A stretch of 64,000 nt of DNA from Halobacteriovoraceae bacterium (GTDB lineage Bacteria > Bdellovibrionota > Bacteriovoracia > Bacteriovoracales > Bacteriovoracaceae). Shown here in pieces: positions 10,498 through 26,589 of this stretch. A model generated the notes under the pieces. It saw nothing but the letters and a program-made list of their open reading frames with translations, was not told where the DNA came from and did not search any database. The stretch's first letter is position 1. Each line of letters opens with the position of its first letter. The stretch covers positions 32,001 through 96,000 of the forward strand of contig CAVRCF010000001.1 of assembly GCA_963719505.1 (NCBI GenBank), read 5' to 3'. The translations under genes and the position numbers were made by a program.

Positions 10498-10574
10498 GGT
10501 GGGCGTAGTTCAGTTGGTAGAGCAGCAGATTGTGATTCTGTTTGTCGTGGGTTCGAGCCCCATCGTCCACCCCA
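10498..10574 (+). tRNA. tRNA-His (GTG)
   Basis: Cloverleaf: G-1, acceptor GTGGGCG/CGTCCAC, anticodon arm GCAGA-TTGTGAT-TCTGT, T loop TTCGAGC, C discriminator, encoded CCA. Confidence 0.97.
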
Positions 10575-10606
10575 TTTTTCAGCATCATTTTATCGAATGC
10601 TTTCAA

Positions 10607-10932
10607 CCCAAATCCGCGAGAATCTTTTCCACTGCTCTGACAATATCCCAAATCCGCGAGAATCTTTTCCACTGCTCTGACAATATTTTTTTCATTCGGC
10701 TCATTTTGAGTTCGCTGGTCCATAGAGGTCGCATAGTTGCGCCTTTTTTTTTGCTCTAGCTCTTTTTTTTCAATTCGGCTCATTTTAAACCCAAATCCGC
10801 GAGAATCTTTTCCACTGCTCTGACAATATTTTTTTCATTCGGCTCATTTTGAGTTCGCTGGTCCATAGAGGTCGCATAGTTGCGCCTTTTTTTTTGCTCT
10901 AGCTCTTTTTTTTCAATTCGGCTCATTTTAAA
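10607..10932. repeat. Tandem copies of the IS1380 right end (40 bp + 143 bp + 143 bp)
   Basis: Copies start at 10607, 10647 and 10790, each with CCCAAATCCGCGAGAATC; 10647-10789 is repeated at 10790-10932. Confidence 0.92.
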
Positions 10933-11228
10933 TCGCTATCTTTTTTTCCAACATCAAAATTTTCCGCGAGTAAACTCAAAACTCTCTTCAAAAAGCTCCC
11001 AGGTACTTTTTCATCTACTTATTTTGTCGCCAAAACAGCCATTCCCAAACCTTTATTCAAAAGTTGTCCCCTACTTCATTTCCATTCTCTATTTTCCTCC
11101 GATAAAAACACAACCTTTCTTCTCGAGCGTATGTTTTAACTACTCAAAGACGTACTCAAGGCGCACGTCTGCCTTGGTGGCAGTAGTTCAAGCTGGTTTA
11201 CAATATTCATTTTTCAAAGAACACGCGC

Positions 11229-12599
11229 TCAGGTTTGTAAACTAAACTTAAACAATAAATTTTTCATAATCCTGTTAAGCACCACCTCCTGTTTAAAGTA
11301 AATTCTTAACTTTAGTTTCCGAGCACTTCGGATCAACTGCCCCGCAATATTTATGACATGACTTCTAACACTCTTTGAAAAATATCCAAGCTGTTTTACA
11401 CGAATCCTTTCTCCACTTTTTCTATCTCGAACTGTTCGCCACTTCTCTTCCATGCAAAAAGAAATTACTCTCGTTAAATTATGTGCAAACGTTCCTACTA
11501 ATCCAAAAATTTTATTCGCTCTCAAACGACGACAAGGAAAGTTTAAAAAATCAAAGCCGTACTTTTGCTCTCGAATATAGCTCTCTGCTGTTGCTCTATC
11601 TTTATAAAACTCAAAAACTTCTTCATTGTTCATCTCTGAAAAACCAATGTTTGTTATGATAGAATAATGTCTATAGTCGTGTTCTTCAGGATTGTAATTC
11701 TTAAAGAGGTCTCGAGCCTCATTGATATCATCTACGCTCTTTCGGGCTCTAATAAAAACGACTCGCATCTCCCCTAAGCTTTTAATTGGGTAATGAGACA
11801 TCGCTATTTCACACTCTTTTGACTTGAAAAACTCAAGTTCTGTCTTCTCCCAATTCAACATATTTCGATTCTTCTTTCTAACATATCGACTTATATTATC
11901 CCTAAGAACTATTGCAAACTTTGCTCCTTTGGCTTGAAGAGCTTTATAAACTTCTTGCTTTCCATATGCGGAGTCTGCTCTAAACCATCTTTCTAAATGA
12001 CTTGGACAATTCTTAAAAATTTCATGCACCCAGCGCTCAGCATCTTTACCCGAATGAGTATTTCCAGGACGAAGATCGAACAAATAACTAAATCCAAATT
12101 GATCATAAGCATTTTGAGAATCAAGGCACCACATATTTTTATAGTTCCACGCCATCCCTTCCATATTTTTTCCGTAATGTTCATGAGGCGTAGAATCCAT
12201 TGAAAGAATAAACTTTATATCATCTGGAAACATCAAAGCTCTAAGCTCAAAAGTTAGCTCAACTAAAAATTCCTGTAATTTTTCAGCATGTCTATTTCCA
12301 AATGACTTTAAAAAATCACCTTGAGTCCTAGCTGCAACCTTCCCAGTAAGTTCTGCAAACAATGGATCTTTATTTGAATTATCAATATCAGAAAGACAAT
12401 CATTTCCAACAACAAACGAATAAAGTAGAGATTTAAACTTATCTAATTGAGTTGGACCTATGTTTTTCTTTTTGCGGGGCATCTTAGATTTGAGTCTTTT
12501 ATCTAGTTTTAGTTGCTTCCAGAGCTCTTCAAATAAAAATAGACCAGAATGAGAAGAGAATGTTTGAGAAGTTGATTCAATTTTGATAGTTTTGTACAT
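11229..12599 (-). CDS. IS1380-family DDE transposase
   Basis: SSHSGL, MDST, LRPGNTHSG, RADSAY, YxxRATAESYIREQK motifs; likely start ATG 12599. Confidence 0.92.
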   Translation of the reverse strand: MYKTIKIESTSQTFSSHSGLFLFEELWKQLKLDKRLKSKMPRKKKNIGPTQLDKFKSLLYSFVVGNDCLSDIDNSNKDPLFAELTGKVAARTQGDFLKSFGNRHAEKLQEFLVELTFELRALMFPDDIKFILSMDSTPHEHYGKNMEGMAWNYKNMWCLDSQNAYDQFGFSYLFDLRPGNTHSGKDAERWVHEIFKNCPSHLERWFRADSAYGKQEVYKALQAKGAKFAIVLRDNISRYVRKKNRNMLNWEKTELEFFKSKECEIAMSHYPIKSLGEMRVVFIRARKSVDDINEARDLFKNYNPEEHDYRHYSIITNIGFSEMNNEEVFEFYKDRATAESYIREQKYGFDFLNFPCRRLRANKIFGLVGTFAHNLTRVISFCMEEKWRTVRDRKSGERIRVKQLGYFSKSVRSHVINIAGQLIRSARKLKLRIYFKQEVVLNRIMKNLLFKFSLQT

Positions 12600-12913
12600 G
12601 GCAGTTCTTTTGCTAAAAAGCTTTTTTGGTTTGTTTTTTTTTGTTTGGCGATAAAAAGATATCAAAACAAAAAAGCTTTTTCTTTATGCAGGGCCGTAAA
12701 AAAAACACTTTTTTTTCAATTTTTGGGTGAATTTATCAAAATGATGAAAAGCCTTATTACGACTACTTGGAACGCACGATATTAGGTATCATCGTGCGCG
12801 GTTACGTTTCAACATACTTTCAACTATTACTAATCACTTACAAACACGTTGTGAGAAACTATCTAGGTCGAAGTCTTATACCTTTCAACTCATTCCATAT
12901 TATTTCACGAATA

Positions 12914-12943
12914 TGACTGATTTCTGACTGACCCTTGACTGAC
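12914..12943. repeat. Putative integrase arm-type sites (3x TGACTGA, 11-bp period)
   Basis: TGACTGA at 12914, 12925, 12936; homologous triplet at 25070/25081/25092. Confidence 0.6.
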
Positions 12944-13262
12944 TTCTTAAAATCGAAATTGCGGATTGTTAACCTTCAATTAATTTTCTGCGGCGTTTTA
13001 CCCCCCATTCAAGAAGCAAGGTCACCTTTAAAAATAGTTTTACTATTTATTTACTCATGTAAATTTTATTAGAAGGCTGTTCAAATACCTTTCTCTATAT
13101 GAAATATTTAAATTAGAAGAAGGATGTTCTGAAAAAAATAAAGTTTACTTATAAAACCCAAAGTTTCTAATAGACTATGAATTCAGTTCTTTATGACCAA
13201 TCAGTCTTAGAAATGTCACATTCAGTTCTCAGTGTAGATTTTTTATGGAGTAACTAAGCAAT

Positions 13263-13559
13263 TTACATAAGAGCTCTTAATATCCACCCTGAACCATGCC
13301 ACAAAGCAGAGCTAACAAGAGGGAATATAAAGATCAATATAATTAAAATACCTAACCCTTCGCTTACCTTATATCTCTTAGGGACTTTACCTGTCGCATA
13401 AATAATTAACACTATTGCTCCAACAGTAGAAATAAAGCCCCTGAAGATACTTACTAACATTTCCACATTTAAATTATTAGATAGAAAAAGCACAAACGAT
13501 AGTAAAACGACGAGAGCCGCAATACTTATAAGCCCATCTTTAATATCTTTGGATTTCAT
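13263..13559 (-). CDS. Small hypothetical membrane protein (3 TM)
   Basis: Hydrophobic ORF in island cargo. Confidence 0.6.
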   Translation of the reverse strand: MKSKDIKDGLISIAALVVLLSFVLFLSNNLNVEMLVSIFRGFISTVGAIVLIIYATGKVPKRYKVSEGLGILIILIFIFPLVSSALWHGSGWILRALM

Positions 13560-13627
13560 TATTGCTTAAGTAGTGATATCAAAATCAACCTTGAAATTTG
13601 TATAAACATAATTATCAGTCTCTCGGT

Positions 13628-13867
13628 TTAAGCAGCTGAATTTTCGCTTAACAGCTTTTTACCAATTGGTGAATTAGTTGGGACAAGAGTCTGACTGTCA
13701 CAAGCTCTACAGGCTTTATGTCGACTTGTCAGTCTCCAAATAGAGTAAATTACTCCCGGTATAATCATCATGATCCATAAAAAAATCTCAATTAAAAGGC
13801 TACCCTTGGTAATTGTTTTTGGTTTCCCAACAGTTCCGCAAGCTGAGCAAATTAATTCGTTAGCCAT
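13628..13867 (-). CDS. LITAF-like zinc-ribbon membrane protein
   Basis: CSAC-hydrophobic segment-CRAC; GGAG RBS. Confidence 0.7.
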   Translation of the reverse strand: MANELICSACGTVGKPKTITKGSLLIEIFLWIMMIIPGVIYSIWRLTSRHKACRACDSQTLVPTNSPIGKKLLSENSAA

Positions 13868-13898
13868 AAAGTCTCCTAATTAAGTTTTTGTTAATTAC

Positions 13899-13925
13899 TG
13901 CTCGGCTTAGAAATAAACACCTTTA
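13899..13925 (-). promoter_or_regulatory. Sigma28 (FliA)-like promoter
   Basis: Minus strand TAAA-N15-GCCGAGCA upstream of the 13867 start. Confidence 0.5.
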
Positions 13926-13977
13926 GTAACTTTCCAATAATTAAGAAAATGCTTTGGCCCCCAATTCAGTAGACACT

Positions 13978-14840
13978 TTAATTAGCACTCCGGTACTGGA
14001 GTGGACTCATCATCTTTAATGCTGAATGTGGTGCTATTTCATTATAATCCGCAAACCACTCTGGCAACATTTTTAAAACTGTTTCAGCATCCTTACAGTC
14101 TGCGAGATAAGCATAATCTCTTTTGATAGTGTGAACGAAAGATTCTGCCATTCCATTTGAAGAAGGGCTATATGGAGCTGTATAACATGTCAGAAGCCCT
14201 AAGTCTCTGGCCGCATTACGTGTGATGTTTGCTCGATAAATTGTTCCTCTATCTGTTAGCCATTGAATTTTATGTGGCGTCTCAACATCCTTAAATCTAT
14301 TTAAGACTGACTCGCTCATCAAATCTCGAATATCTGTTGCTTGAAGTGGTCGATCTTTGGCCACAAAACTTATTGCTTCCCTGTCCTTACAATCTAAGCT
14401 GAAAGCAACGTAAACTTTTTCTCCGTTAAAGCACTGAAGCTCAAATCCATCAGAGCACCAACGAGTATTTGAATGAAGAGTCATTACCTTTCCAGTTCCA
14501 GGATGCTTTTTTCTTGATGGATATTTTTTAAACAATAAATCGTTCATATCCATAACCCTATATATTCTTTTGCGATTAACAATCGCTTTGTTATGAAGAA
14601 CTCTTTCTCTATTAAGCATCGCTGTAATCCTCTTATATCCGTACGTTGGGCGTTTCTCTTTTAACTCCTTTATGGATTCTAATATTTCAGCATCATCTTT
14701 TTTCCTATATCTTTTCATTTCTAAGCCTTTTGATTTTTTATAAAAAGCTGCCCTTGATACTTTTAAATATCTACAGACGAGACTTACCTTGAATCGTTTT
14801 AACTTAACGATTTCTTTGGCAGCTTCTACTTTTCTTTTTT
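13978..14840 (-). CDS. IS3-family transposase OrfB (joined to OrfA by -1 frameshift)
   Basis: YGYKRI, WCSDG, LTDRG, SNGMAESF, YN..PHSAL; frame stays open upstream of ATG 14718 to the A-rich AAAAAAG site near 14834-14840. Confidence 0.9.
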
Positions 14841-15158
14841 GGGATTTTTTTTAAAGATCTCTACCGCTTCATTCAGAATTTCTTTTTCTAAAGAAAGGTC
14901 CCCGACAATCTTTTTGAGTCTTCGGATTTCTTCTTTTTGCTTTTCATTTTCTGAAATTAGCTCTGATTGAGAATGATTCATCTTTGGATTTTTGTCTGAC
15001 ATCTGTCTTTTCCATTGAGCTAGAGTTACTGGGTGTATGCCATGTTTTGTGGCAATACTGATCATTGAATTCTTTTGATCAAAGTACTCTGCTAAGATAG
15101 CACATTTTTGTTCTTTGCTAAAATGCTTACGTTTTTTCGGTGACTTAGTAGTCGTCAT
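14826..15158 (-). CDS. IS3-family transposase OrfA (HTH + coiled coil)
   Basis: RKHFSKEQK...IATKHGIHPVTLAQWKRQ, leucine-zipper tail. Confidence 0.9.
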   Translation of the reverse strand: MTTTKSPKKRKHFSKEQKCAILAEYFDQKNSMISIATKHGIHPVTLAQWKRQMSDKNPKMNHSQSELISENEKQKEEIRRLKKIVGDLSLEKEILNEAVEIFKKNPKKEK

Positions 15159-15254
15159 AACTTCCCCTTATTGGTTGGAAAAGTGTCTACTTGAAAAGGG
15201 GGTTACAAACAAAAAATTAATATCACTTTTACTGCAAAGCCCCGATAAGTAGCT

Positions 15255-15476
15255 ATGTTTAATAATTTTAAAGAAGTCATCAATTCATTAATAAAACGAG
15301 TCGACCACAATCAAGAAATTATTGAAAGCCAACAGGAGTTGATTCTCAAACTACAACAGCAGCTTGAGAAACTCAGAGGTGATTTAGTCTCAAATTCAGA
15401 GGAAATTAAACACCTCACGTTAATCTTAGAGAACCCTCATTTATTTATTAACCCTTTAATTGATAAAAAATCATAG
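15255..15476 (+). CDS. Small coiled-coil hypothetical protein
   Basis: ORF preceded by CCCGATAAG. Confidence 0.5.
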   Translation: MFNNFKEVINSLIKRVDHNQEIIESQQELILKLQQQLEKLRGDLVSNSEEIKHLTLILENPHLFINPLIDKKS

Positions 15477-15685
15477 TTGCTAAACAGACTCTAAAAAACA
15501 ATATTTTAAGTTTCACTTTAACACTAGAGAGTTAGTGCTTTGGAGAAATATATCTAGAGCGAAAGGTCTAAAGTAGGCAAATCAAAAAATTATAGTGAGT
15601 CCAAGCGGGCTGATGAACCGTGTGACCGTCTAATACATTACTTTGTATATAGCCACAAAACACGTTGAAATTAATTTATCTTAAG

Positions 15686-15712
15686 TAAAGCCTTACCAGT
15701 AAGTTCCGAAGA
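15686..15712 (+). promoter_or_regulatory. Sigma28 (FliA)-like promoter
   Basis: TAAA-N15-TCCGAAGA upstream of 15751. Confidence 0.5.
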
Positions 15713-15750
15713 GCTAATTATCTAATCTTTACAATTACTATGGAGGACAA

Positions 15751-16752
15751 ATGTTCTGGAAAAAAAAGAAACATAATGTTGAGCTTGAGCAAGCTGTCAA
15801 TGAAGTCTTAGTAGAGGCATTTGGTGGAGATATATTTGAAGTTAATAGCAAGCACATAGAAGCTATTATTGATAAAGCAAAGTTTAGCAACTCCCCCTTG
15901 CTTATCAAATTCCTTAAACTAAATTCTAAGAGCTATGCTAATGATTACAGCATTTACTTTGAATCAAAAGAAAGTCATGTAAGGCACCTTGTTATGAAAG
16001 AGGCTTGTTTATGCGAACAAGCTCACAACAGAGCAATTTCAATAAATAACCAAACATTGGAGATACAGCGAAAACTAGAATTAACTGAGGACTTCCAACT
16101 AAGTACGTCAGCTGACCAAACTTCACTAGAAAATGAAGCTCTTGATAGTTTCTCCAAGAGCCTAGGTAAATACACTTTTAATACTGGTGAATGCAAAGAG
16201 TATATAAAGGCATATTCTGAGGTTGAAAGCTTTTGGGGTACGGAAGAGCATAAGATCATTATTTCAAAACTAAAGGATGTAAACTTTAAGGTTTTTGACC
16301 TTGTGTTTGAACTCTTTGATAATGATCCAGTTGACTTGTCTCCACAACTTATTAAAGCGGGGTCATATATGGCCGAAGAAGCTAAAAAAGCTACAAAGAG
16401 TGGATGGGTAAAAAGAGGAATTGTTGATATCTCTGATAAAGAGTGGCTAAGCAAAAAGCTCAAAGTTGGAGAAATTAAAGAGATTCTTAAGTCTAAAGGC
16501 TTAACAGCTAAGGGAAAAAAAGATGACCTTCTGGTTACACTTACCCCTTCACTATCAATAGATGATCTTAGCAACTATATTGCCTTAAGAGATGTGTATA
16601 AAGTAAATGATGACATCCTATCAGAACTCGAATGGATCAAAGTAGCAAAGATGTATAATTACTCTAATGCTAGTGTCCAACTCATTCAGATCCACCTTAA
16701 CAATATGATTGACTCATTTATTGACTCGGAGGAAAGCAAGAAAGTTGCTTAG
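15751..16752 (+). CDS. SAP-domain-containing hypothetical protein
   Basis: LKVGEIKEILKSKGLTAKGKKDDLL matches the SAP motif; GGAGG RBS. Confidence 0.7.
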   Translation: MFWKKKKHNVELEQAVNEVLVEAFGGDIFEVNSKHIEAIIDKAKFSNSPLLIKFLKLNSKSYANDYSIYFESKESHVRHLVMKEACLCEQAHNRAISINNQTLEIQRKLELTEDFQLSTSADQTSLENEALDSFSKSLGKYTFNTGECKEYIKAYSEVESFWGTEEHKIIISKLKDVNFKVFDLVFELFDNDPVDLSPQLIKAGSYMAEEAKKATKSGWVKRGIVDISDKEWLSKKLKVGEIKEILKSKGLTAKGKKDDLLVTLTPSLSIDDLSNYIALRDVYKVNDDILSELEWIKVAKMYNYSNASVQLIQIHLNNMIDSFIDSEESKKVA

Positions 16753-16911
16753 AAAGTCAATTCGACCAACAAGATAAATGGACGATACTGTGATCAAAGC
16801 TTTAACAATGCAAAGAATAACTTCAATATTCTAATGAAGTAACGATGGCTTAGGCTGCTTTAATTGGCCTATATATTGCTTCTATTAAGATATCTATACG
16901 AAGGGGAATAT

Positions 16912-17343
16912 ATGAAATTTATTAAAGGTCTTTTTTCAAATTTTAAACAAACGGATGAGGAAAAGCTTAAAAAAGTCGAAGCTGCAATCAAGCCTCAGGT
17001 TGATCAGTACTTAAGTGATGCATTTGTATTATTAATGCCTATCGTTGCAAAATGTAACAAAAGCGAGCTTCCTAAAACTACCACTTCTTATGATTTATAT
17101 TGCTATTGGAGGACTTTGAGCCAAAAGAAAGTTAATGAAAGCCTTTCTTCCATTACAAAGCAAGTATTGGACTTTGGACTCGACCAAGCACTTTATAGCG
17201 TAGACTTAATTATACTGGCGACTTTAAGTGATACCAAGTTGAATAGCAGCTTAAAAACAGAAATTATTCATAAATCCTTACCAATACTTGGAGTAAAAGC
17301 TAAAGACTTCAATGATTTTATAAATATTTTAAATGTAGCCTGA
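16912..17343 (+). CDS. Hypothetical protein
   Basis: ATG 16912 with AGGGG RBS. Confidence 0.6.
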   Translation: MKFIKGLFSNFKQTDEEKLKKVEAAIKPQVDQYLSDAFVLLMPIVAKCNKSELPKTTTSYDLYCYWRTLSQKKVNESLSSITKQVLDFGLDQALYSVDLIILATLSDTKLNSSLKTEIIHKSLPILGVKAKDFNDFINILNVA

Positions 17344-17564
17344 GAATAATAAGCCTAGAGAGTTAAAATTAATCATTAATTATGCTTAAGGTTTTATCAC
17401 TTCACAGCAAGTTAGTAGTAAAGTCTAAAGTAGACTCTTTAGACTTTTAATAAATTTATGGAAGCTAAGTCAATCTTAATGCTCCATTACCTATAATGTA
17501 TAAAGACTATGTAATCCTTTCCTCTGTTCTTCAAAGTATATATAAATTCAGTTATTTATAAATC

Positions 17565-18398
17565 ATGCGAGAAAATAGCAAGACTTTACCATTAATTAAC
17601 GCCATCAAGATTTCTGAAGGTTTTACAGATCTACATAATGACTCCAACTCCTACTTGCATTGTATTATTGAGTGTTGTTTTAAGCTAGAAGTAAGTCTGT
17701 ACGTTTACACTAATGCTTACTTTAGAAGAGTTGACGATGACGACTGTGGAATTATAAATGAATATTCAGAGGAAGTTCAATTCCCACTCGAAAGTGGGGG
17801 CTTTAAATATATGAGGAAAGCACTTTACGCTTTAAATAGATTAGCAATCTTTGAAATTGCCCACAGGAAAATGCCTACCTTTGGGTTTGTAGATCTTTGG
17901 AGTGATGCTTTCATAGGAAAAACCATTACAAGTCAGAGGGTTGAGCCTTTTACAGGCATTTTGAATCTTAATGGAAAGCTAGGTATTCCATACTGTATAA
18001 GCACTAAGAAGCTTCAAAACTTTGAGTTCAGCTTGAATGATCTGTATATAAACATTAAAGATGTAGATAAAGTACTTTTAGAACTCAAAATCACTAAGAG
18101 TAGCCCCACTTTGTCGCTAGAAACCCAATCTACAGTTCCCACAGAGAACAATATCAAGCTAAAGGATGCCATTATTCATACCCTCCTTACACTAATTCAA
18201 TCTGATGCGAACGAAGAAAACTTAAGCATGAACTCTCATATAAGTACCGTTATAACTGACAGTTCTAAGAAAATTCAAGCAAGTAAAATCGCTGACTTGG
18301 TCAACTCAAATGCTATTAAGTATTTTGCGAACAAAGATCAATTTAAGTCATCAACCATAAGTAGAAAAATTAACAAGATATTGAAAGATTTCGAATAG
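17565..18398 (+). CDS. Hypothetical protein, possible C-terminal HTH
   Basis: 277-aa ORF upstream of rep; ends ASKIADLV...KSSTISRKI. Confidence 0.6.
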   Translation: MRENSKTLPLINAIKISEGFTDLHNDSNSYLHCIIECCFKLEVSLYVYTNAYFRRVDDDDCGIINEYSEEVQFPLESGGFKYMRKALYALNRLAIFEIAHRKMPTFGFVDLWSDAFIGKTITSQRVEPFTGILNLNGKLGIPYCISTKKLQNFEFSLNDLYINIKDVDKVLLELKITKSSPTLSLETQSTVPTENNIKLKDAIIHTLLTLIQSDANEENLSMNSHISTVITDSSKKIQASKIADLVNSNAIKYFANKDQFKSSTISRKINKILKDFE

Positions 18399-18487
18399 TC
18401 TGAATATTTATATATTTTAGAAAAATACCGTTTTTTTTATTTATTCAAATTTTAAAGACTAAGTTCCTCTCCAATCAAGGAGATGAA

Positions 18488-19393
18488 ATGAACCTCACAG
18501 CTATATTAAGCACTAAACTCACGTCAAAGAATATACAGCACTCTAATTATTCTGGCTTTATAGATAAGCTTGAATTGAATGCAAAAAGCTTAGAACTAAG
18601 TAAGAGTGACTTAATTTTGCATCTTAGATCTCAAAGTATTCTTTTTCAAGAAGCTTCATTTAGAAAGGGTGGCTTATGCTTAGAAATAACAACACCAATG
18701 AAAGTAAAGGTATACGCGAAGATAAACTATGTCTCTCAGTACATTTCTAAACTAATATTAAATCCAAGTTATTACGAAAACTACAAACAATTCTCTTCAG
18801 ATGCTTTATCTCTGTTCGGAAAGATTTCAACTATTGAATTACTTCCAGTGACTAGGCTTGATAAGTCATTAGATATTGCTTGTTCCTATGAACTAGTATC
18901 AAGAGGATTTGATATCAAAAATAAGAGGTCAGCTAATGCTTATCAATACAGCTCTGGCATAAATACTGGGATTGATATAGGTAAAACTCCAGAAGTAATG
19001 AAACTTTATGATACTTCCCTTAAAGCAAAACTCTCCTTTCCTTGTACTAGGCTAGAGGCATGCCTTACTCGCAATAAAATAAACATAGATAATATCTTTG
19101 AACTTCGACAGCTTTATAACAAAAACTCTAATTATGTTGACCATACATTTTCTAAAACTTCTTTTAACGACATTGAGTTTAGTAATACTAAATCTGAATC
19201 AACCACTAAACTCAGTATTCTATGTGATCACCTCCCCTACCTCTATGTTAGATGCAGGCTTAATCATCACGGTAACTTCCGTAGGGACTATGCAAAACTT
19301 CACATTTTAGTACCTTGGAGAGCGCAACCATCAATCATATTCAACACAGCAATGAGAAAATTTTTCAATGATAGTGCTTCGGGGAGGCAATAG
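18488..19393 (+). CDS. Rep_trans/gene II-X-like rolling-circle initiator (possibly inactive)
   Basis: IDKL, LNPS, TRLDKSLD, TG-x-x-IG, KLYD, TRLE motif order; adjacent to xis-int. Confidence 0.6.
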   Translation: MNLTAILSTKLTSKNIQHSNYSGFIDKLELNAKSLELSKSDLILHLRSQSILFQEASFRKGGLCLEITTPMKVKVYAKINYVSQYISKLILNPSYYENYKQFSSDALSLFGKISTIELLPVTRLDKSLDIACSYELVSRGFDIKNKRSANAYQYSSGINTGIDIGKTPEVMKLYDTSLKAKLSFPCTRLEACLTRNKINIDNIFELRQLYNKNSNYVDHTFSKTSFNDIEFSNTKSESTTKLSILCDHLPYLYVRCRLNHHGNFRRDYAKLHILVPWRAQPSIIFNTAMRKFFNDSASGRQ

Positions 19394-19599
19394 TGGCTAA
19401 TATGAAGAAGATCTTTGAAATTCAAAAATGGATGACTACAAAGGAAGCTGCTAATTATCTAAGAATGACTGAGAATGCATTTAGAATCTATGCTTCACGA
19501 TACAAGCTTGATGCTTACACATTGGGTGAAAAATCAGTTAGATATAAGACTTCCGACCTAGATAGACTCATGACCCTAAAAACTAGGAGTCACAAATGA
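19393..19599 (+). CDS. Excisionase-like HTH_17 protein
   Basis: WMTTKEAANYLR...VRYKTSDLD; coupled to integrase. Confidence 0.85.
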   Translation: MANMKKIFEIQKWMTTKEAANYLRMTENAFRIYASRYKLDAYTLGEKSVRYKTSDLDRLMTLKTRSHK

Positions 19600-20738
19600 C
19601 TATCATTAAAAAGAAAAACACGATTGGAGAAACTTACTTTCTCATTCGAGTTCAGTTGCGTTCAAAGATTCAACCTCATATTAGAATACAAAAACAAACT
19701 ACTCTTAAGGGCAAATTAGTTAATGCTAAAAAGGCTAAGCGTAGAGAACAAGAGCTGACTTATACCTGTATGGAGGAACTTAAGAAGCGAGAAGGAAGTG
19801 ATCTCTCATTTCAAGAGTTAATTGACCTTTGGTATTCCTATAAAGTCAGTGAAGAATTTATTACTCTAGAGACTGTTGGTGATTACTATAGAGCTTTACA
19901 GAAGTGGTGTTTCTCAATTTTAACAAAGCCATGTAACGAGATTGCAACTTCTGATGTGAAAGTTATTTTAAAAATGCAAAAAGATGAAGGTATCTCTAGA
20001 AGCTTTCGAAGAAAGTTTAAATCTATGATCAATAACGTCTATAAGTGGGGATTTGAAGAGGGATATCTTCATTCAACTAAATTCTCACCCACTGTGGGAA
20101 TTCAACTTGAAAGACGTGAAGAGAAAAAGCCAGAAATTTTAACCTTACAGCAAACAAGAGAGTTCTTAAATGCTGCTCGGACACTTGAACACCCATGGTA
20201 TCCAGTTTGGGCCTTTGCAATTCTAACAGGTGCACGAAATGGTGAGTTATATGCTCTAAACAAAAATGATGTTGATCTTGAAAATAATAAAATTATAATT
20301 TCGAAATCATTCAACAATAGGCGAGGCGAAATCAAGTCTACAAAAGCCGGTTATTATAGGACGGTTCCTATCAACCCTGAGCTAAAAGAATTGATTCTAG
20401 AGCTTAATAGGGCCAATCTAGACAGTGATTTTTTATTACCTCGACTATCTGGATGGAACAAAGGCTGCCAAGCACAAGTTCTAAGAACATTTCTTACTGG
20501 AATTAATCTACCAAGCGTGAAGTTTCATACATTGAGAGCATGCTTTGCAACTTTGTTACTTCAACAAGGCAAAGCACCCGCAGTAATAATGAAGATTTGT
20601 GGCTGGAGAGATCTAAAGACAATGGAACGTTATATTAGACTTGCAGGTGTTGATGAAAAAGGTGCAACAGACTCACTGAAAGTTCTTCCTCTTAAATCTC
20701 TGGACGAAGAATATTGTTTAAACTTCCCACAAAGATAG
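19596..20738 (+). CDS. Tyrosine recombinase/integrase
   Basis: TGARNGE (R), K, FHTLR (HxxR), GW, ERY (Y) all present. Confidence 0.95.
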   Translation: MTIIKKKNTIGETYFLIRVQLRSKIQPHIRIQKQTTLKGKLVNAKKAKRREQELTYTCMEELKKREGSDLSFQELIDLWYSYKVSEEFITLETVGDYYRALQKWCFSILTKPCNEIATSDVKVILKMQKDEGISRSFRRKFKSMINNVYKWGFEEGYLHSTKFSPTVGIQLERREEKKPEILTLQQTREFLNAARTLEHPWYPVWAFAILTGARNGELYALNKNDVDLENNKIIISKSFNNRRGEIKSTKAGYYRTVPINPELKELILELNRANLDSDFLLPRLSGWNKGCQAQVLRTFLTGINLPSVKFHTLRACFATLLLQQGKAPAVIMKICGWRDLKTMERYIRLAGVDEKGATDSLKVLPLKSLDEEYCLNFPQR

Positions 20739-20848
20739 TAACCCACAGCAACAAAAGTCGGTAAAGGTGGGCTCTTTGGCTAACAACAGTCAATAGCTCG
20801 ACTTAAGACATTGTTTTTGATAAGGTTACGAAGAACACCCCATTTTTT

Positions 20849-20884
20849 AAAAGCCTTGCGTCTAACCGCCAAGGCTTTTTTTTT
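20849..20884 (+). terminator. Intrinsic terminator after att copy
   Basis: AAAAGCCTTG...CAAGGCTTTT hairpin with T tract. Confidence 0.7.
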
Positions 20885-20999
20885 GCCTACAATTTCGTTG
20901 GGTTAGACGGGCGGTTAAAAATCCTCGTAGGGAAACGAATGACGGGCCATGTGAATCAGGCGAACCGTTAACCACCACTTTGTTATTGACTAATATGGA

Positions 21000-21743
21000 G
21001 TGTATAAAGGAAAAATGAAAACATTAATCTACACTTCAATGCTTCTATTGCTCATCAGCTGTAACAACTCAACAATGCTATCAGTAAGTAATTGGGCAAT
21101 TGCAATTGCTGCCCTAATTGGATCTTTAGGTGGAGTCGGAAAACTATATTATTCGAATGCTATAAGCAAAGAACAAGAAAAACCCAATCAAAGCAAAATT
21201 CACGAAATAAAATCTGAATATAAAGAATGGATGTTGAATAAAGATTCGCCCATTATCCTAGAGTTAGTTGATCTCCAGTTAAACTTTGGTTTCGAGGCCC
21301 AACTTAATAAAGGCGATCAAATAAACTTTAAAAAATATTTAGACTGGGATATTGATGGAAAGAAACCATTTTTACAATTCAAGGAAGACTGGGACTCAGG
21401 GAAAATTAATCTTGCAGATACTAGTGGAGCACTTCCTATAGTAGGAAAGAAATTTCTTGTAAAAGATATTCATAAGCAATGGGTTTATAGAGATGTCGAT
21501 GACATGGTTGTTACATATAATATTATAAAGCGATATATACTTACTAACACAAATGCACTTCCAAACTCAAAAACAATCAAAGACTTCCAAACGAAAAAAG
21601 TAAAAAGAGTTTTCAATGAAGAAGACTTAGCTCAATTTGATATTCAAGGTAAAAAAATATTTACCTCTAAAGATGAGATTCCAGAGCAGAGTGGAGAAAT
21701 TTTACACTTTAGACTTAAACCTACAATGAAACCAATTAACTAA
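21000..21743 (+). CDS. Hypothetical lipoprotein/membrane protein
   Basis: LLISC lipobox-like sequence and hydrophobic segment. Confidence 0.6.
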   Translation: MYKGKMKTLIYTSMLLLLISCNNSTMLSVSNWAIAIAALIGSLGGVGKLYYSNAISKEQEKPNQSKIHEIKSEYKEWMLNKDSPIILELVDLQLNFGFEAQLNKGDQINFKKYLDWDIDGKKPFLQFKEDWDSGKINLADTSGALPIVGKKFLVKDIHKQWVYRDVDDMVVTYNIIKRYILTNTNALPNSKTIKDFQTKKVKRVFNEEDLAQFDIQGKKIFTSKDEIPEQSGEILHFRLKPTMKPIN

Positions 21744-21769
21744 TCTTCTCTTCTCTTCTCTTCTCTTAT

Positions 21770-22447
21770 CTAACCAAAAACAATTGATGGTTCAAATTTC
21801 TCTCCTAACCCCCCAAGGTTTGCAATACATTCTTCAATCTTACTCTTCAGCCTAGGATCATTTTTAAATACCCCCTTTAAAATATGTTCGGCCATATGAA
21901 CATGTTTTGACTTTACACTAAGGAAATGTTTTGCAATCTCTAGCAAAATCTCATCATTTGTTACTAAGTCAACGCTATTCTTAATGGCATCATACAGGAG
22001 CAAATAATCCTCAGGAGAAGGAGCGGAAGTTGATTTGTTTGATCCCTGGAAAATATTTTCTTCTCTCCATTCCTTTTGTAATTGCTTCCTATAATCATCA
22101 AAAACAATTCTCTTCGCTTTAAAGCCATCGTCTCTTAGATTTGCTAAACTTAAAGAGGTCAAATTATCTTTGATAAAACGTTCTATTTTAGGAAAAGTCA
22201 CTTCACCAACATCATCAAAAAAAGAAGGATATCCTCTTTTTTTAGGTCTAGGAGTAAGATTTTTTTCTAGATGGAAAGTTGCAACATCTGACTCAAACTC
22301 TTCCAATACAATTGGATGAAATTCAAGTAACCCCATACCTGGAATGATGATATTGTCTGCAGGTATAATTTCTTTTGATATAAAAAAATAAAGTTTATAT
22401 ACAGAACATGTGTCAGTTAAAAGTATTTCTATTTTTTCAGAGCCCAC
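21770..22447 (-). CDS. PIN-domain ribonuclease (putative toxin)
   Basis: PIN acidic tetrad pattern: LTDTCS, VLEE, PEDY, LVTND. Confidence 0.7.
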   Translation of the reverse strand: MGSEKIEILLTDTCSVYKLYFFISKEIIPADNIIIPGMGLLEFHPIVLEEFESDVATFHLEKNLTPRPKKRGYPSFFDDVGEVTFPKIERFIKDNLTSLSLANLRDDGFKAKRIVFDDYRKQLQKEWREENIFQGSNKSTSAPSPEDYLLLYDAIKNSVDLVTNDEILLEIAKHFLSVKSKHVHMAEHILKGVFKNDPRLKSKIEECIANLGGLGEKFEPSIVFG

Positions 22448-23676
22448 GATGCAAGCTCCTTACTATTAAACTCTTCACTTGACCAAATAGCCTTCAGAAC
22501 ATTTACTTCATGTCTTTTCAAAGAAAATAAATTTGCATAATCAATAGGACTGATTCCACCATTCACAAGTTTATTTCTCAAAGATGTATAGACAGGATAA
22601 TCTCTTGGCTCTTCCCTAATGATAGTATCAAATAATTTTTTGTGTTCTTCAAAAGATGAGTGATCAATATTTATTCTTCCAATTTCTGAAAGTGATTCTG
22701 TATTATCGTTAAAGTAATCATCATACTTTGATGTAAGATCTTGATAAAGATTACTACCTTCAGTTAGTAATTTATTATCAACTAGAGCATTGGCCAATCC
22801 TGATGGAGCCCAAGTTCCATCATCATTGTATTTTTTAATTACAAAATTAACTACATCTTCAGAAGACTTACCAATTTTTCTCAATCTCCCTCCATCGAGA
22901 AAAATATCCTTTAAATATTCTTCAGGGTAAACTAAATCTCCAACAGTTCTGTCGATGAACTTTTCAAGGTCAATTCCTCTTTCAAATAATCCATCTAAAA
23001 TTATATGAATAATCTCATGAAGCAAATCAAAGAAGACAGATGATCGTCTCCTGTCCGCATCAATAAGTATTGCGAACTCACCATCCCTGCTAAATAAAAC
23101 TGCTGACTTTCTATCACCTTCATCGACTTCAAAATCTAAACCAATGCTTTTAAATGACATATAATAGCAATGAACACTTAATAGGTCTAAAATATAGTCA
23201 TGAACAAAGTTTCTCTTAATTGGAAGACTAGGAGGAATAAAAAAGAAACCTCTTATTATCTTTGCAGCCAATTTAAAAGATTCATCACTCTTAATGTTTA
23301 TACTAGATAACTGCTCTCTAATACCATTAAAATCAAAATTGGATTTCTTCATATAGTCGCTGGCAAGCGTCTCGAAAACAAACTCAGTTCTCTCTCTTAC
23401 CTCAGGTGCAACCTCGCACTTATCCATTTCTCTATGATTTCTAGTTCTATAGTGAAATGCCAATGGCGCCCTTCCCATTAAACAATCAATATCATCCCGG
23501 CTCATCTCAAAAATATCTAGCATTTGAGCGACTCTTGAGTGTGGTATTTTTTCAACACCCCTAGTCCATTTTGAAATAGCTGAAGGGTCAACGCCAAGCT
23601 GGCGAGCCAACTCTCTTCCTGCAATTCCTTTAGAATCAATTAACTGGCTTAAAAACTTTCCTGACCTATAAATCAC
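22429..23676 (-). CDS. XRE HTH fused to ImmA/IrrE-type Zn metallopeptidase
   Basis: ELARQLGVDPSAISKW HTH; LLHEIIH (HExxH). Confidence 0.85.
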   Translation of the reverse strand: MIYRSGKFLSQLIDSKGIAGRELARQLGVDPSAISKWTRGVEKIPHSRVAQMLDIFEMSRDDIDCLMGRAPLAFHYRTRNHREMDKCEVAPEVRERTEFVFETLASDYMKKSNFDFNGIREQLSSINIKSDESFKLAAKIIRGFFFIPPSLPIKRNFVHDYILDLLSVHCYYMSFKSIGLDFEVDEGDRKSAVLFSRDGEFAILIDADRRRSSVFFDLLHEIIHIILDGLFERGIDLEKFIDRTVGDLVYPEEYLKDIFLDGGRLRKIGKSSEDVVNFVIKKYNDDGTWAPSGLANALVDNKLLTEGSNLYQDLTSKYDDYFNDNTESLSEIGRINIDHSSFEEHKKLFDTIIREEPRDYPVYTSLRNKLVNGGISPIDYANLFSLKRHEVNVLKAIWSSEEFNSKELASWALKK

Positions 23677-23865
23677 TAAACAGTATCCTTTACTTTAAAC
23701 TCGTATTCACACACCTCTTCGGTTGATCATACCATTTACTCAATTTTTTATATAATTTCAATATTATATGGCATTTTATTTATCCTTGACACTAAATTTT
23801 ACTCAATTTTTAGTAATATCAACGTACTAGAGATAACTGCTCAACTTAAAGACACTACTTCTTAT

Positions 23866-24273
23866 TTAATTATTAGCTAATATCTGTTGAACCGACTTTG
23901 GTGACCATTTCGCTCTCTTCGTCTTAGTAGTCACCCCCATCACGTTTAAAACATCTGCGATTTTATGATAAGAAAACCCCTGTTCTCTCAACTCCTTGAT
24001 CTTCTCAATCACCTCTTGCTCTTTCTTGTGAACGATAATTTCTCGATCCTTAAACTTCTTCCCATAAGCAAGACCACGCTTTCTATTTTGAACTGTTCCT
24101 GGAACTCGAGTTTCAATTCCAAACTTCTTCATCTGTTTAGAAATAGTTTGACGGGCCACTCCAAACTCTACCGCCAGCTCATTTAGACTTCGCCTTTCTA
24201 CGACGTATTTTTGATATAAAGTCTCTTTATTTCGCCACTCATTTTTGACTGGTAATTGAAAGATATTAGACAT
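23866..24273 (-). CDS. HTH + serine-recombinase 'Recombinase' DNA-binding domain, no catalytic domain
   Basis: SLNELAVEFGVARQTI HTH; YG...EQEVIEKIKEL..GFSYHKIADVLN..G..T....W....V..IL; likely ATG 24273. Confidence 0.7.
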   Translation of the reverse strand: MSNIFQLPVKNEWRNKETLYQKYVVERRSLNELAVEFGVARQTISKQMKKFGIETRVPGTVQNRKRGLAYGKKFKDREIIVHKKEQEVIEKIKELREQGFSYHKIADVLNVMGVTTKTKRAKWSPKSVQQILANN

Positions 24274-24349
24274 TTGGACTTGGCGGTTGGACGGACTCCA
24301 ATAAGAAGGTCCACCACCCCATTTAAAACTTAACATCCTTCGGGATTTT

Positions 24350-24394
24350 AAATAGAAAGAGCCTAGGTCTAACCCACTTAGGCCTTTTTGTTTC
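24350..24394 (+). terminator. Terminator-like hairpin, repeat copy 1
   Basis: AAATAGAAAGAGCCTAGGTCTAACCCACTTAGGCCTTTTTGTTTC; 43/45 identical to 25457-25501. Confidence 0.75.
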
Positions 24395-24443
24395 TGACAT
24401 TATAAAGTGTTTCAAATATTTCTCTTCATGTTAAACTTAGGGC

Positions 24444-24824
24444 ATGCAAGCAACATTCAATCAAAAAATTCTATTTTTGAAACTATTCACAATATCATTA
24501 ATAACATTCCTACTTTATGACACTGGAGAAAGAATATATTTAGGTATAACTGACGATAAGAAATCTGACATACTACTCTTTGTTACCTCAACCTGGAACT
24601 TAGTAGAGATTTTTGTTTTGATAAAGTTTGTTCTTTGTAGAATCTTTGCCCCTTCAAGAAAGGCTCTCCTCATCATTGGGGCCTTAAAACTTGCACTTTT
24701 TCTATTCGTGATAGATCTACTTATCAAAACTCCACTCATTACTCTTAGGGAGTTATTAATAATTACTGGTTTGCTTGTGTTTGGAAATTTAAACTACAGA
24801 AAATATTCTGATACCACAGAATAA
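24444..24824 (+). CDS. Hypothetical 4-TM membrane protein (sole gene of unit 3)
   Basis: Hydrophobic ORF between att copies. Confidence 0.55.
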   Translation: MQATFNQKILFLKLFTISLITFLLYDTGERIYLGITDDKKSDILLFVTSTWNLVEIFVLIKFVLCRIFAPSRKALLIIGALKLALFLFVIDLLIKTPLITLRELLIITGLLVFGNLNYRKYSDTTE

Positions 24825-24915
24825 TTATTATTTATTTCGATAGTTTAGCACTCAGTTAGGCTGCTTTTATCTAATTATCAACCAGTGGCAACAGATCTAA
24901 ATGTTAATGTCTGTC

Positions 24916-24937
24916 TTGGGTGGCATTTGCCACCCCA
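24916..24937. repeat. Palindromic att-like site containing the tRNA-His 3' end
   Basis: TTGGGTGGCA-TT-TGCCACCCCA; second copy TTGGGTGCCA-TA-TGCCACCCCA at 25406-25427. Confidence 0.75.
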
Positions 24938-25218
24938 TTTTTTTCAGTAATATTTTAGAATTCAAATTTCAAAGACTCAACTAATTTAAATCACTTACAT
25001 CACTCTTTAAATCTATTCGCCACTCAAAATCTTGTATCTTTCACACCATTTCACATCACGACTTCATCAGTACTGATTTTTGACTAACTACTGACTGACA
25101 ATAAAAAAAGACATGTGTATATGAAGCATTCTAAATATGATAGACTAAATGAGAAATTCATATTAGTTTGCCTAGTGTGAATCGAATACTTGCATTGACA
25201 GGTATAATTGAGGAATCT

Positions 25219-25347
25219 ATGAAAAAAATATTAAATGCAATTCTTAAAACTATTGCTGACGGGACAACCATTCTATACGCTGGTTTTTCAATTAAAAACA
25301 TCAGAAAAGTGATCAAAGGTGAAAAAGAACCAATCGATAGTCTTTAA
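25219..25347 (+). CDS. 42-aa small protein (sole ORF of unit 4)
   Basis: MKKILNAILKTIADGTTILYAGFSIKNIRKVIKGEKEPIDSL; GAGG RBS and TATAAT upstream. Confidence 0.45.
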   Translation: MKKILNAILKTIADGTTILYAGFSIKNIRKVIKGEKEPIDSL

Positions 25348-25456
25348 ATCAGATAGATTTAACTTAAAAGAATGTGGCAGGCTCGTCAAATGTATACCGC
25401 CTGCTTTGGGTGCCATATGCCACCCCATCAAAACATTAAGCATCTTAGGGTGAGTA

Positions 25457-25501
25457 AAATAGAAAAAGCCTAGGTCTAACCCACTTAGGCTTTTTTGTTT
25501 C
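25457..25501 (+). terminator. Terminator-like hairpin, repeat copy 2 (possibly the native tRNA-His terminator)
   Basis: Hairpin plus T tract ~30 bp after the last CCACCCCA. Confidence 0.75.
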
Positions 25502-25515
25502 AAATTATTGATATT

Positions 25516-26589
25516 TCATTTTATGATTTTAGATTCTAACAATGCGCTTTTCAACTTTATCGCAGAGAACTCTTTTTCTCTTTTGGTACTATTTCTAACG
25601 TTTATAAAAAACTTAGTCGTAAGCAAAATTGTCTCTTGGTGGTCTTTGATAAACTTAATATAGGAAGGGGTAAGATTAAAGAACCCCTCTTTTTTCAATG
25701 AACTGAGGTTATTAATTATTTTCTCTTGTTTTACAAGATTGGAATCATTACGAGAGAGATCGATAAGCTTTGCCACTTTTAGTTTTCTTCTCTTTGAGAA
25801 GTCATCAAATTCTCCATTAAGCTGTAGCCCCATACTTCCAATGAATTCTCCAAAATCATAATTTCTATGTCTACTAAAGAAAGATTTTTCTTCCGTAGAT
25901 AGATCAAAAGTTTTGTCAAGACCTAGTCCAAAGTCAGTTATGTAAGGACTTGATCCGTCGGTAAGGATATTTAAAAAATGCATATCCATATGAATAATAT
26001 TATTTGATTTTAAGAATTGAATTGCATTAAGAACTTCGTTAGTAATCTTAGCAAACTGACTTTTGTCTTTTTTAAGGTAATCTCTAAAGGTTTGAGGAAT
26101 GTACTCTAAAAAAAGAACCAATTCATATGGCGAATTATCACGGGCCTTGATATAACTTTTTATCGAGCTATTATTTTCCCAATATTTAAAATAGCTTTTA
26201 TAATCTTTTTTACTCGCTTTATTAGTTCTCTTTATTATTCGATAATGGTACATCAACGGAAAATTCAAACATTTTTTGCTGAGGACCCAGTTCGTTGTCT
26301 TTATATGCAAAAAAAGCTCCCTAAATGCCCCAAATCCAGCTGATCCAATTCCATAATTGTAAGTCATCGGTAAGTCGTAGTGATTTTTTGTACTAAATGA
26401 ATTATCGAATTCGACTTGAGTTAAAGGAATCTTTTTAGCAAAAACTTTAGTATTTCCAATTTTTATAATGTGATTGGTTCCCCAGCCTTTCTTGCCAAGA
26501 TCACCCTTTTCTAGCTTGTCACAAATCAATGCATCGCTAGAGTATGAAAGTTTCGTGTTGAGGCTAAAGTACTGATCATTTCTATTCAT
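25516..26589 (-). CDS. Protein kinase-like protein
   Basis: GxGWG, VFAKK, LEY, HMDMHFLNIL, TDFG. Confidence 0.8.
   Translation of the reverse strand: MNRNDQYFSLNTKLSYSSDALICDKLEKGDLGKKGWGTNHIIKIGNTKVFAKKIPLTQVEFDNSFSTKNHYDLPMTYNYGIGSAGFGAFRELFLHIKTTNWVLSKKCLNFPLMYHYRIIKRTNKASKKDYKSYFKYWENNSSIKSYIKARDNSPYELVLFLEYIPQTFRDYLKKDKSQFAKITNEVLNAIQFLKSNNIIHMDMHFLNILTDGSSPYITDFGLGLDKTFDLSTEEKSFFSRHRNYDFGEFIGSMGLQLNGEFDDFSKRRKLKVAKLIDLSRNDSNLVKQEKIINNLSSLKKEGFFNLTPSYIKFIKDHQETILLTTKFFINVRNSTKREKEFSAIKLKSALLESKIIK

Follow-up and report, generated by a model that had tools for sequence, protein, structure and literature searches.

A tandem array of integrase-bearing and integrase-less units behind tRNA-His in a Halobacteriovoraceae bacterium, with a junction module shared across the family

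A 64,000-nt stretch of the genome of a Halobacteriovoraceae bacterium (hereafter the window, whose numbering is used throughout) carries, directly behind its tRNA-His gene, four units parted by copies of the tRNA 3' end. We consider it probable, at roughly 0.68, that this tRNA-His gene is an integration hot spot and that positions 10575-25427 form a tandem array built by successive site-specific insertions, with crossover in the last 7-8 bases of the tRNA. The repeats and the gene content of the units are seen in the window itself, and in related genomes the units are present, absent or placed in another order. The locus fits best among cases of accretion at tRNA genes, with members that lack an integrase and resemble cis-mobilizable elements (CIMEs), a known kind of structure in an unusually modular form shared by the family, by which we mean Bacteriovoracaceae/Halobacteriovoraceae.

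The anchor of the array is tRNA-His (GTG) at 10499-10574 on the + strand, called by ARAGORN and matching the Rfam tRNA model at 59.6 bits. It is the only tRNA gene that ARAGORN found in the window and the single tRNA-His among the 32 tRNAs of the assembly, which is 83.5% complete in five contigs, and the genes upstream of it are conserved housekeeping genes. Its terminal 8 nt (10567-10574, CCACCCCA, junction J0) are the repeated core. The 7-mer CACCCCA occurs seven times in the window, always on the + strand (10568, 20836, 24315, 24931, 25421, 28927, and 32373), against a shuffle expectation of 2.39 (sd 1.45), and none of 100 shuffles reached seven copies. The first five copies are intergenic with T-rich sequence after each; the 8-mer CCACCCCA stands at 10567, 24314, 24930, and 25420, and at 20836 the 7-mer alone. 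The other two, at 28927 and 32373, fall within coding sequence, have no T-run, and were set aside as chance occurrences. Over both strands of the 3.69-Mb assembly CCACCCCA was counted 53 times and CCACCCCAT 15 times, and four of each fall within the array's 15 kb on a single strand. The shuffles and the genome-wide counts rule out a chance origin of the clustering. The motif search thus bore out the original prediction, made from the letters of the window alone, which had the tRNA 3' end recurring at 10567, 20836, 24314, 24930, and 25420; the units that it put at about 10.3, 3.5, 0.6, and 0.5 kb measured 10268, 3479, 616, and 490 bp from core to core. At the four downstream junctions the identity to the tRNA end covers 12, 11, 13, and 9 nt.

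Unit boundaries at the cores were also seen in the closest genome, the same-genus G002, which is 74% identical in the left flank. There the core of tRNA-His runs straight into a trailer that shares 88% identity with 24314-24396. Since this is the trailer found here at 24322, positions 10575-24313 are absent in G002, with breakpoints at the cores; what G002 shows is the joint absence of units 1 and 2, not of each singly. Unit 4 is absent too, again with its breakpoint at the core. The slot of unit 3 holds an unrelated 183-aa AAA_18 gene in place of the 126-aa open reading frame (ORF) found here, followed by an arm 90% identical to 24901-24942 that ends in GCCACCCCA, and then by a bare terminator, a Fic gene, and kinase-gene fragments. 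The ends of this slot are 88-90% identical between the two genomes around unrelated cargo, while the coding flanks are 74% identical. The block from 20.8 to 25.5 kb was found in none of the relatives searched. These results agree with the check that came with the original prediction, namely that unit boundaries in relatives should coincide with the CACCCCA copies and that 20.8-25.5 kb should not be one invariant block. Right-flank synteny was tried as a marker of the ancestral site and rejected, as the downstream genes differ between genera. A separate feature of the G002 locus is a set of repeated, iteron-like GGGTGTTTTACAGGTGTT(n)GGGTGTTTC motifs upstream of the Fic gene (L013 2240-2350).

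Judged from its sequence, unit 1 (10575-20842, 10.27 kb) is a real integrative island. A full-length tyrosine integrase of 380 aa is encoded at 19596-20738 on the + strand (Pfam Phage_integrase, 3.5e-16), at the right end of the unit and away from the tRNA, and the claim that only unit 1 encodes a full integrase held. The gene is preceded by an excisionase-like helix-turn-helix (HTH) gene of 68 aa at 19393-19599 (+; Pfam HTH_17 29.7 bits, cut-off 27), which scored 24.4 bits against the NCBIfam excisionase domain, under the cut-off of 28.8. The right arm of the unit (20739-20842, +) ends in the core ACACCCCA (junction J1, 20836-20842). Four cargo ORFs of 333, 159, 277, and 301 aa fill 15751-19393 on the + strand; they showed nothing above cut-off in Pfam, NCBIfam, or PADLOC, and no relaxase or mobilization family was found in unit 1 with Pfam and NCBIfam.

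The left arm of unit 1, A1, is split. Its proximal part (TTTTTCAGCATCATTTTATCGAATGCTTTCAA, 10575-10606, +) is 72% alike to 24930-24961, and its distal part at 12809-12965 (+) consists of TCAACTATTACTAATCACTTACA and three TGACTGA copies at 11-bp spacing (12914, 12925, and 12936), which align with 24950-25100. Between them lies an IS4-like insertion sequence (IS; 10607-12808, -) with a DDE transposase at 11229-12665 (Pfam DDE_Tnp_1_4, 5.4e-38). When the IS was excised in silico, A1 became colinear with 24938-25100 over about 150 bp, including TCAACTA..AATCACTTACA and the TGACTGA-type repeats. Apart from this homologue in unit 4, the distal arm has no further copy elsewhere in the genome. The predicted class of starts with TTTTCAG...TTTCAA directly past 10574, on an arm shared with 24938-25100, therefore stood, whereas its TCAACT...AATCACTTACA and TGACTGA part lies 2.2 kb farther on because of the inserted IS; the TGACTGA triplet is exact in unit 1, and unit 4 holds a single exact TGACTGA at 25092. 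These starts are, as far as arm homology can tell, the left arms of integrase-bearing islands, and we infer that the TGACTGA repeats of unit 1 serve as arm-type integrase-binding sites. As the recent IS has parted core and arm repeats by 2.2 kb, excision of unit 1 is probably crippled.

The 478-aa ORF beside the tRNA was considered as an integrase and rejected, being in fact the transposase of the IS4-like element, which has four further genomic copies at 98.6-100% identity. The left end of the copy in the window is multiplied in tandem (143 bp twice, 40 bp three times). This copy sits 32 bp past tRNA-His; two tandem copies at C3:213956-217950 lie about 140 bp past tRNA-Asp, and of the copies on C5 (C5:1089092-1091112 and C5:83419-85441) one lies about 250 bp past an integrase paralogue, which suggests that the element prefers regions downstream of tRNA genes or attachment (att) regions. 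Unit 1 also contains an IS3-family element at 13940-15221 (-; orfA 14826-15158, orfB 13978-14718; Pfam HTH_Tnp_1, rve, and rve_3) with two further genomic copies at 99.7-100% identity.

The integrase of unit 1 has close relatives at 76% (L040) and 71% (L041) identity over residues 1-379/380, and this genome itself encodes three paralogues. The sequence downstream of the integrase gene was inspected in 13 of 14 named relatives, whose titles give Bacteriovoracaceae, Halobacteriovoraceae, and allied metagenome-assembled genomes, and a core resembling a tRNA 3' end was visible 100-250 nt past the stop codon in 6 of the 13. In the 76% relative the stop codon is followed downstream by ...GAAGAACCCGCCA, a tRNA-Asp-type end; in the 71% relative CACCCCA and a terminator follow; and in others the downstream sequence reads ...CACCCCA, ...CCACCA, ...CCGCCA (twice), or ...CCACCACCA. 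Such a pattern would fit an integrase family that crosses over at the extreme 3' end of tRNA genes, and such a crossover would explain both the short repeat and a shared block that lies in the trailer. Set beside window positions 20810-20842, L040 has a nearly identical arm end and a core of the tRNA-Asp type CCCGCCA rather than the tRNA-His type (GAAGAA-CCCGCCA there, GAAGAA-CACCCCA here), so a recent switch of target tRNA inside one integrase lineage is possible. Islands of this kind recur at tRNA-His in other genomes. In G093 the right end of an element of 8 kb holds an HTH_17 gene and, after it, an integrase 48% identical to that of unit 1, the same layout as in unit 1; this element also carries NikA-like and MobA/VirD2 relaxase genes, and it has tRNA-His with its trailer on one side and a second core with a bare terminator on the other. 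In G192 tRNA-His at 788925 is followed by an island whose left arm starts with a T-run and CAG and has repeated TTGCTAC motifs; an integrase homologue at 799551-800483 stands at its right end, directly before the first of several junction modules, so that the order is tRNA-His, island, array.

Units 3 and 4 are small and integrase-less. Unit 3 (24322-24937) begins past core J2 (24314-24321) with a trailer of about 85 nt (B1; J2 and B1 together 24314-24400, +), made of a small hairpin and a terminator with a TCTAACCCA loop and scoring 88.1 bits against R1, a covariance model of core plus trailer. A hydrophobic ORF of 126 aa that belongs to no family follows (24444-24824, +), and the unit closes with a pseudo-tRNA arm of about 40 nt, called D10, that ends in core J3 (24930-24937; arm and core 24897-24937, +) and is 90% identical to its counterpart in G002. 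Unit 4 (24938-25427) starts with arm A2 (24938-25100, +), which aligns with 12790-12960, and as A1 and A2 are homologous over about 150 bp, the unit opens with a relic of a unit-1-type element. It goes on with a 42-aa ORF (25219-25347, +) and a second junction module (25387-25507, +; R1 94.5 bits) formed by another D10 arm, core J4 (25420-25427), and trailer B2. The two D10 copies are 86% alike and the trailer copies (repeat D3) 80% alike. The array ends before a protein-kinase-like gene (25516-26589, -; Pfam Pkinase 3.1e-09), the first right-flank gene held in common with G002. Single-gene units without an integrase, as originally predicted, were therefore confirmed for units 3 and 4, and like modules occur in G002, G092, G185, G192, and others. 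The 42-aa ORF is present in 2 of 237 family genomes; the other is G092, in a second genus and likewise inside a tRNA-His array, where tRNA-His is followed by a trailer, a 77-aa ORF, a degenerate core, a second trailer, and the homologue of the 42-aa ORF.

A second class of unit starts, each with a terminator hairpin of shared loop, had been proposed past 20842, 24321, and 25427. The hairpins were there, with GTCTAACC at 20860, 24367, and 25474 and T-runs after them, in two subtypes: past 20842 stands a bare terminator, and past 24321 and 25427 the trailer of about 85 nt. Their reading as a class of element starts failed, since the full trailer directly follows intact tRNA-His in nine other genomes (G002, G092, G093, G249, G023, G246, G157, G076, and G145), and in this genome tRNA-Asn and tRNA-Leu, too, are followed by the GTCTAACCCAC-loop terminator; in G001 and G013 tRNA-His is followed by the bare terminator only. 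This class is a conserved, family-wide trailer/terminator of tRNA-His. In full it comprises a small UUCG-type hairpin, the spacer UUAAGAUAGAA, and a terminator with a YUAACCC loop, and it is kept across many genera. Sixteen trailer copies aligned well, with compensatory changes at 3 of 10 predicted pairs of the terminator stem, and by eye the small hairpin covaries as well (CTTC/GAAG, CATC/GATG, CCTC/GAGG, and CCAC/GTGG). No matching family was found in Rfam. Besides ending transcription, the trailer could have another role, for instance as the source of a stable processed RNA or as a target for recombination. A trailer of a similar kind follows tRNA-Asp. Two near-identical GTCTAACCCAC-loop terminators also stand 1.85 kb apart at a contig end (C5:1261776 and C5:1263624, -), flanking a homologue of the gene that comes after the trailer in G023, and may mark a further trailer-bounded unit away from any tRNA.

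Unit 2 (20843-24321) belongs to another family of elements. It starts with the bare terminator (20843-20888, +, GTCTAACC loop), like the sequence right after tRNA-His in G001 and G013, and its cargo at 21000-23676 consists of a putative lipoprotein of 247 aa (+), an ORF of 225 aa (-), and an HTH protein of 415 aa that has an HExxH motif (-). At the right end a small HTH gene whose match to the 'Recombinase' domain is partial (23866-24336, -; Pfam PF07508, 8.8e-08) abuts the core; its conserved portion is about 102 aa. Homologues of this right-end gene in G093 and G134 (44-47% identical) also abut a core and trailer, as does one in G192, so that three other genera are represented. The G134 homologue closes an 11.7-kb island that starts at tRNA-His with a 539-aa large serine recombinase and is flanked by a 14-nt direct repeat, GGCCACCCCATTTA. 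A G134-type recombinase was sought in this genome and none was found, the sole match being the tRNA antisense stretch; unit 2 is therefore non-autonomous. Among recombinase, relaxase, and transfer families, Pfam, NCBIfam, and PADLOC found none in 20843-25427 except the partial 'Recombinase'-domain HTH gene, and the cargo of units 2-4 gave nothing above cut-off in PADLOC and NCBIfam. The stacking of different element families that the original prediction proposed was accordingly supported, with the tyrosine-integrase island (unit 1, G093, and G192), the right-end-gene family (unit 2, G093, G134, and G192), and the single-gene modules side by side.

Two further observations concern these genes. 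At 21770-23676 (-) the stop codon of the 415-aa HTH/HExxH gene overlaps the 225-aa ORF of no known family, a pair that resembles a regulator-peptidase module as in mobile-element immunity or defence loci, for which PADLOC gave weak HTH-level matches only. In G134 the frame of the large serine recombinase (L029 2924-4543) continues through tRNA-His in antisense; as its final 27 residues are encoded by the tRNA gene, integration may set the C-terminus of the enzyme.

Arrays of this type are not confined to the window. R1 was run on 151 family genomes and matched in 63, with at least two same-strand copies within 8 kb in 12. Nine array loci were fetched. Six copies were found after tRNA-His in G185, three in G145, and two each in G168 and G114, and the G192 array has five strong R1 matches. 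Four arrays lie behind tRNA-Asp (G116, G158, G117, and G109), and the extra copies in these bear tRNA-Asp 3' ends (CCCGCCA, up to 16 nt), while the extra copy in G114 contains 19 nt of tRNA-His. Because the tRNA-Asp arrays bear tRNA-Asp ends, the repeats are target duplications specific to the local tRNA, and a freely moving terminator repeat is ruled out. Throughout the family the junction module has the same make-up, a pseudo-tRNA arm, CACCCCA, and a trailer, placed between small units in arrays of up to six. The G185 units hold 1-4 genes each (metalloprotease-like, a nucleotidyltransferase/HEPN pair, ACT-domain, S9 peptidase, and SnoaL-like), and no integrase is among them. The three junction copies in G145 (L033 2192-6711) are evenly spaced at about 2.2 kb with an ORF6N/Rha-like gene after two of them, as if a single unit had been duplicated in tandem and not several inserted separately.

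The arm upstream of the core is conserved as well. The D10 arm is kept in sequence and in spacing to the core in this genome (G000), G002, G185, and G192. Its pattern TGTCT-N12-GCCACCCCA, which the first arm in the window fits, occurred 29 times in 23 of the 237 genomes, in four genera, against one occurrence of the reversed control, and the matches together with about 12 nt further upstream are conserved within genera. Inspected by eye, the sequence after the 29 arms is a trailer in 23 cases (20 clear, 3 partial), a bare terminator in two, the A2 arm of this window in one, and something else in three; the covariance model confirmed many of these trailers. Also by eye, the arm reads as a tRNA from the anticodon loop on, with a deletion of about 6 nt in the T-arm. 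This deletion is common to the arms of different genera, which argues for copying of D10 arms from one another and against independent decay of tRNA ends.

Such conservation is what one would expect if the small units were no dead remnants but a dedicated class of non-autonomous, circle-forming cassettes with one attachment site each (arm, CCACCCCA, and trailer), inserted, excised, and reshuffled at tRNA-His or tRNA-Asp by an integrase encoded elsewhere, on a resident island or by a chromosomal gene. We regard this alternative as unlikely, though worth keeping in sight. In its favor are the arm's recurrence far above the control with fixed spacing to the core and a trailer behind most copies, the shared deletion that speaks against independent decay, the many single-gene units of less than 1.1 kb, the slot held in common with G002, whose ends are better conserved than its coding flanks around exchanged cargo, the 42-aa gene that occurs only in tRNA-His arrays of two genera, a unit order that differs between congeners, and the fact that small units and integrase islands have different ends, those of the small units being conserved across genera. 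Against it, no unit-1-type integrase lies within 1.5 kb of the D10 arm at any of the 29 loci, so that no recombinase can be assigned to the small units, and this result weighs against stepwise insertion as well. Terminators at unit starts and genes on either strand do not suit cassettes of this sort, and the ends may persist for their terminator function, homogenized by gene conversion. In its fullest form, the proposal would make tRNA-His and tRNA-Asp an integrase-less gene-capture platform with attachment modules of about 130 nt, served in trans by the integrases of resident islands and analogous to an integron; we hold this to be doubtful, and integron-like mobilization in trans to be possible.

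The change of order was seen in the congeners G192 and G185, which carry two common units in opposite order. Cargo Y (1.29 kb, 73.5% identical) stands right after the tRNA junction in G185 and after the second junction in G192; cargo X (0.54 kb, 72.8% identical) comes before Y in G192 and after Y in G185. The junction modules of the two genomes are 85-96% alike in all copies, and the homology of Y starts within about 13 nt of the junction start. Likeness of this degree raises a further alternative, in which the large islands alone are site-specific and the small units are shuffled by RecA-type recombination or gene conversion between trailers. Trailers 80-96% alike within and between genomes over 80-110 nt would be enough for homologous exchange, the junction copies inside one genome are closely alike as under concerted evolution, and the small units lack an assignable recombinase. 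This alternative would leave unexplained where the first extra trailers with tRNA-specific cores and pseudo-tRNA arms behind both tRNA-His and tRNA-Asp came from, why the arm upstream of the core is conserved at fixed spacing, and why unit 4 starts exactly at the core with the arm of an integrase island and no trailer. We consider it improbable, clearly more so than cassettes moved in trans.

Insertion by successive site-specific events, the reading that we prefer, has its own difficulties. The exact repeat is just 7-13 nt, far below the displaced tRNA fragments normally used for island calls. When 45 nt upstream of each core were aligned locally with the tRNA body, with 177 other genomic CACCCCA sites as the null, tRNA-like sequence was significant at one of four junctions, 24931 (score 18, reached by 2 of the 177), and the similarity at 20836, 24315, and 25421 was without statistical support; decayed, displaced tRNA halves before every core were thus rejected, with support at 24931 only. 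Even there, positions 24918-24935 of the arm also form a hairpin of the usual terminator kind. Three native-type terminators follow cores (20843, 24322, and 25428), against the one that the simplest model predicts. The pseudo-tRNA arm that closes units 3 and 4 differs from the arm next to the integrase in unit 1, and the small units do not resemble what simple deletion would leave of the integrase-bearing islands seen here. Recombination between trailers, conserved over about 85 nt, could yield gain, loss, and reordering without any integrase, and the relatives compared are distant, the closest being 74% identical in the flank. All of these points count against stepwise insertion.

In the course of events that we propose for stepwise insertion, an element would insert at the end of the tRNA, lose its integrase by decay while its ends persist, and be followed by the next element. 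Unit 1 would be the latest arrival, now probably disabled by the IS between its core and its arm repeats, and units 2-4 would be integrase-less, CIME-like members. Unit 2 would be the remnant of a second island family, marked by the conserved right-end gene; unit 3 would be a single-gene module with the tRNA-His trailer on its left and a pseudo-tRNA arm and core on its right; and unit 4 would be the relic left arm of a unit-1-type island fused to the 42-aa gene and a second pseudo-tRNA arm. Every incoming element presumably brings its own trailer/terminator: if crossover falls in the last bases of the tRNA, most of what element and target have in common would lie downstream, and the trailer would therefore be repeated along the array. 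From sequence comparison we infer where crossover takes place, that the arms are binding sites, in what order the events occurred, and that entry of the small units was site-specific rather than homologous.

Integration at tRNA genes, decay to CIMEs, and accretion of a new element have been described before, in the passages available of a review covering the streptococcal cases (PMC5704250), and tandem arrays at tRNA genes have been catalogued by Islander (PMC4383910). According to the part of the Islander paper at hand, an array call needs an integrase and a tRNA fragment for each member, and 125 tandems of at least two members and 4 of at least three were counted among 3919 islands. With the tandem islands of Islander/TIGER, as far as the available text describes them, the locus has in common an intact tRNA at one end, direct copies of its 3' end, a tRNA-proximal tyrosine-integrase island, and head-to-tail stacking. 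It differs in that one of four units has an integrase, the tRNA repeat is 7-13 nt, and the shared block extends into the trailer. The streptococcal accretion of CIMEs with integrative mobilizable or conjugative elements, in the portion of that review to hand, resembles the locus in placing integrase-less elements, there with both att sites, in tandem with an integrase-bearing element at a tRNA 3' end. Units 2-4 have cores at both ends with conserved arms or trailers, which are candidate att sites. Regarding derivation, the left arm of unit 4 is homologous to that of unit 1 and the end gene of unit 2 occurs in the recombinase-bearing G134 island, while for unit 3 no comparable link to a parent island was found; the three-step CIME model, as excerpted from the same source, fits units 1, 2, and 4. 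Unlike the CIMEs described in that text, the small units here have a conserved attachment-like module in common in four genera, stand up to six in a row, and have no integrase-bearing partner nearby, and derivation by deletion from a full element is indicated only for the left arm of unit 4.

Two better-known systems look similar at first sight. Like an integron array, the locus is a train of short, often single-gene units, each with one conserved recombination-site-like sequence, variable cargo, and changing order. The likeness to integron cassettes drawn by the original prediction did not hold beyond this, for no integrase, and no intI-attI-Pc platform, stands beside the anchor and array, the junctions are tRNA-like arms and terminators instead of attC hairpins, and the units begin with terminators, unlike promoterless cassettes placed in one orientation behind a common promoter, and carry genes on both strands; the integrase of unit 1 scored 32.5 bits against the integron-integrase model TIGR02249, whose cut-off is 265. 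Integrative mobile elements exploiting Xer recombination (IMEX), which use the host XerCD at dif, likewise stand in tandem at one site without an integrase, with the target repeated between them; in the present array a tRNA 3' end takes the place of dif as target, and nothing implicates a recombinase of the host.

The stacking of islands at tRNA genes is textbook knowledge, and the locus by itself would be one more case; the added value comes from the family comparison. The literature found on arrays of this type was general work on islands, CIMEs, and hot spots, with nothing on trailer-repeat arrays in these bacteria, and the available text of a Halobacteriovorax marinus paper mentions a mobile-element hot spot and no tRNA-His array (PMC5760749). 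What this comparison adds is a conserved junction module that parts tiny integrase-less units in several genera of predatory bacteria, with cargo swapped and order changed. Most of such an array would escape island finders that ask for a long tRNA fragment and an integrase in every island. If an integrase acting in trans does move the small units, these bacteria would possess a simple gene-shuffling platform that, to our knowledge, has not been described.

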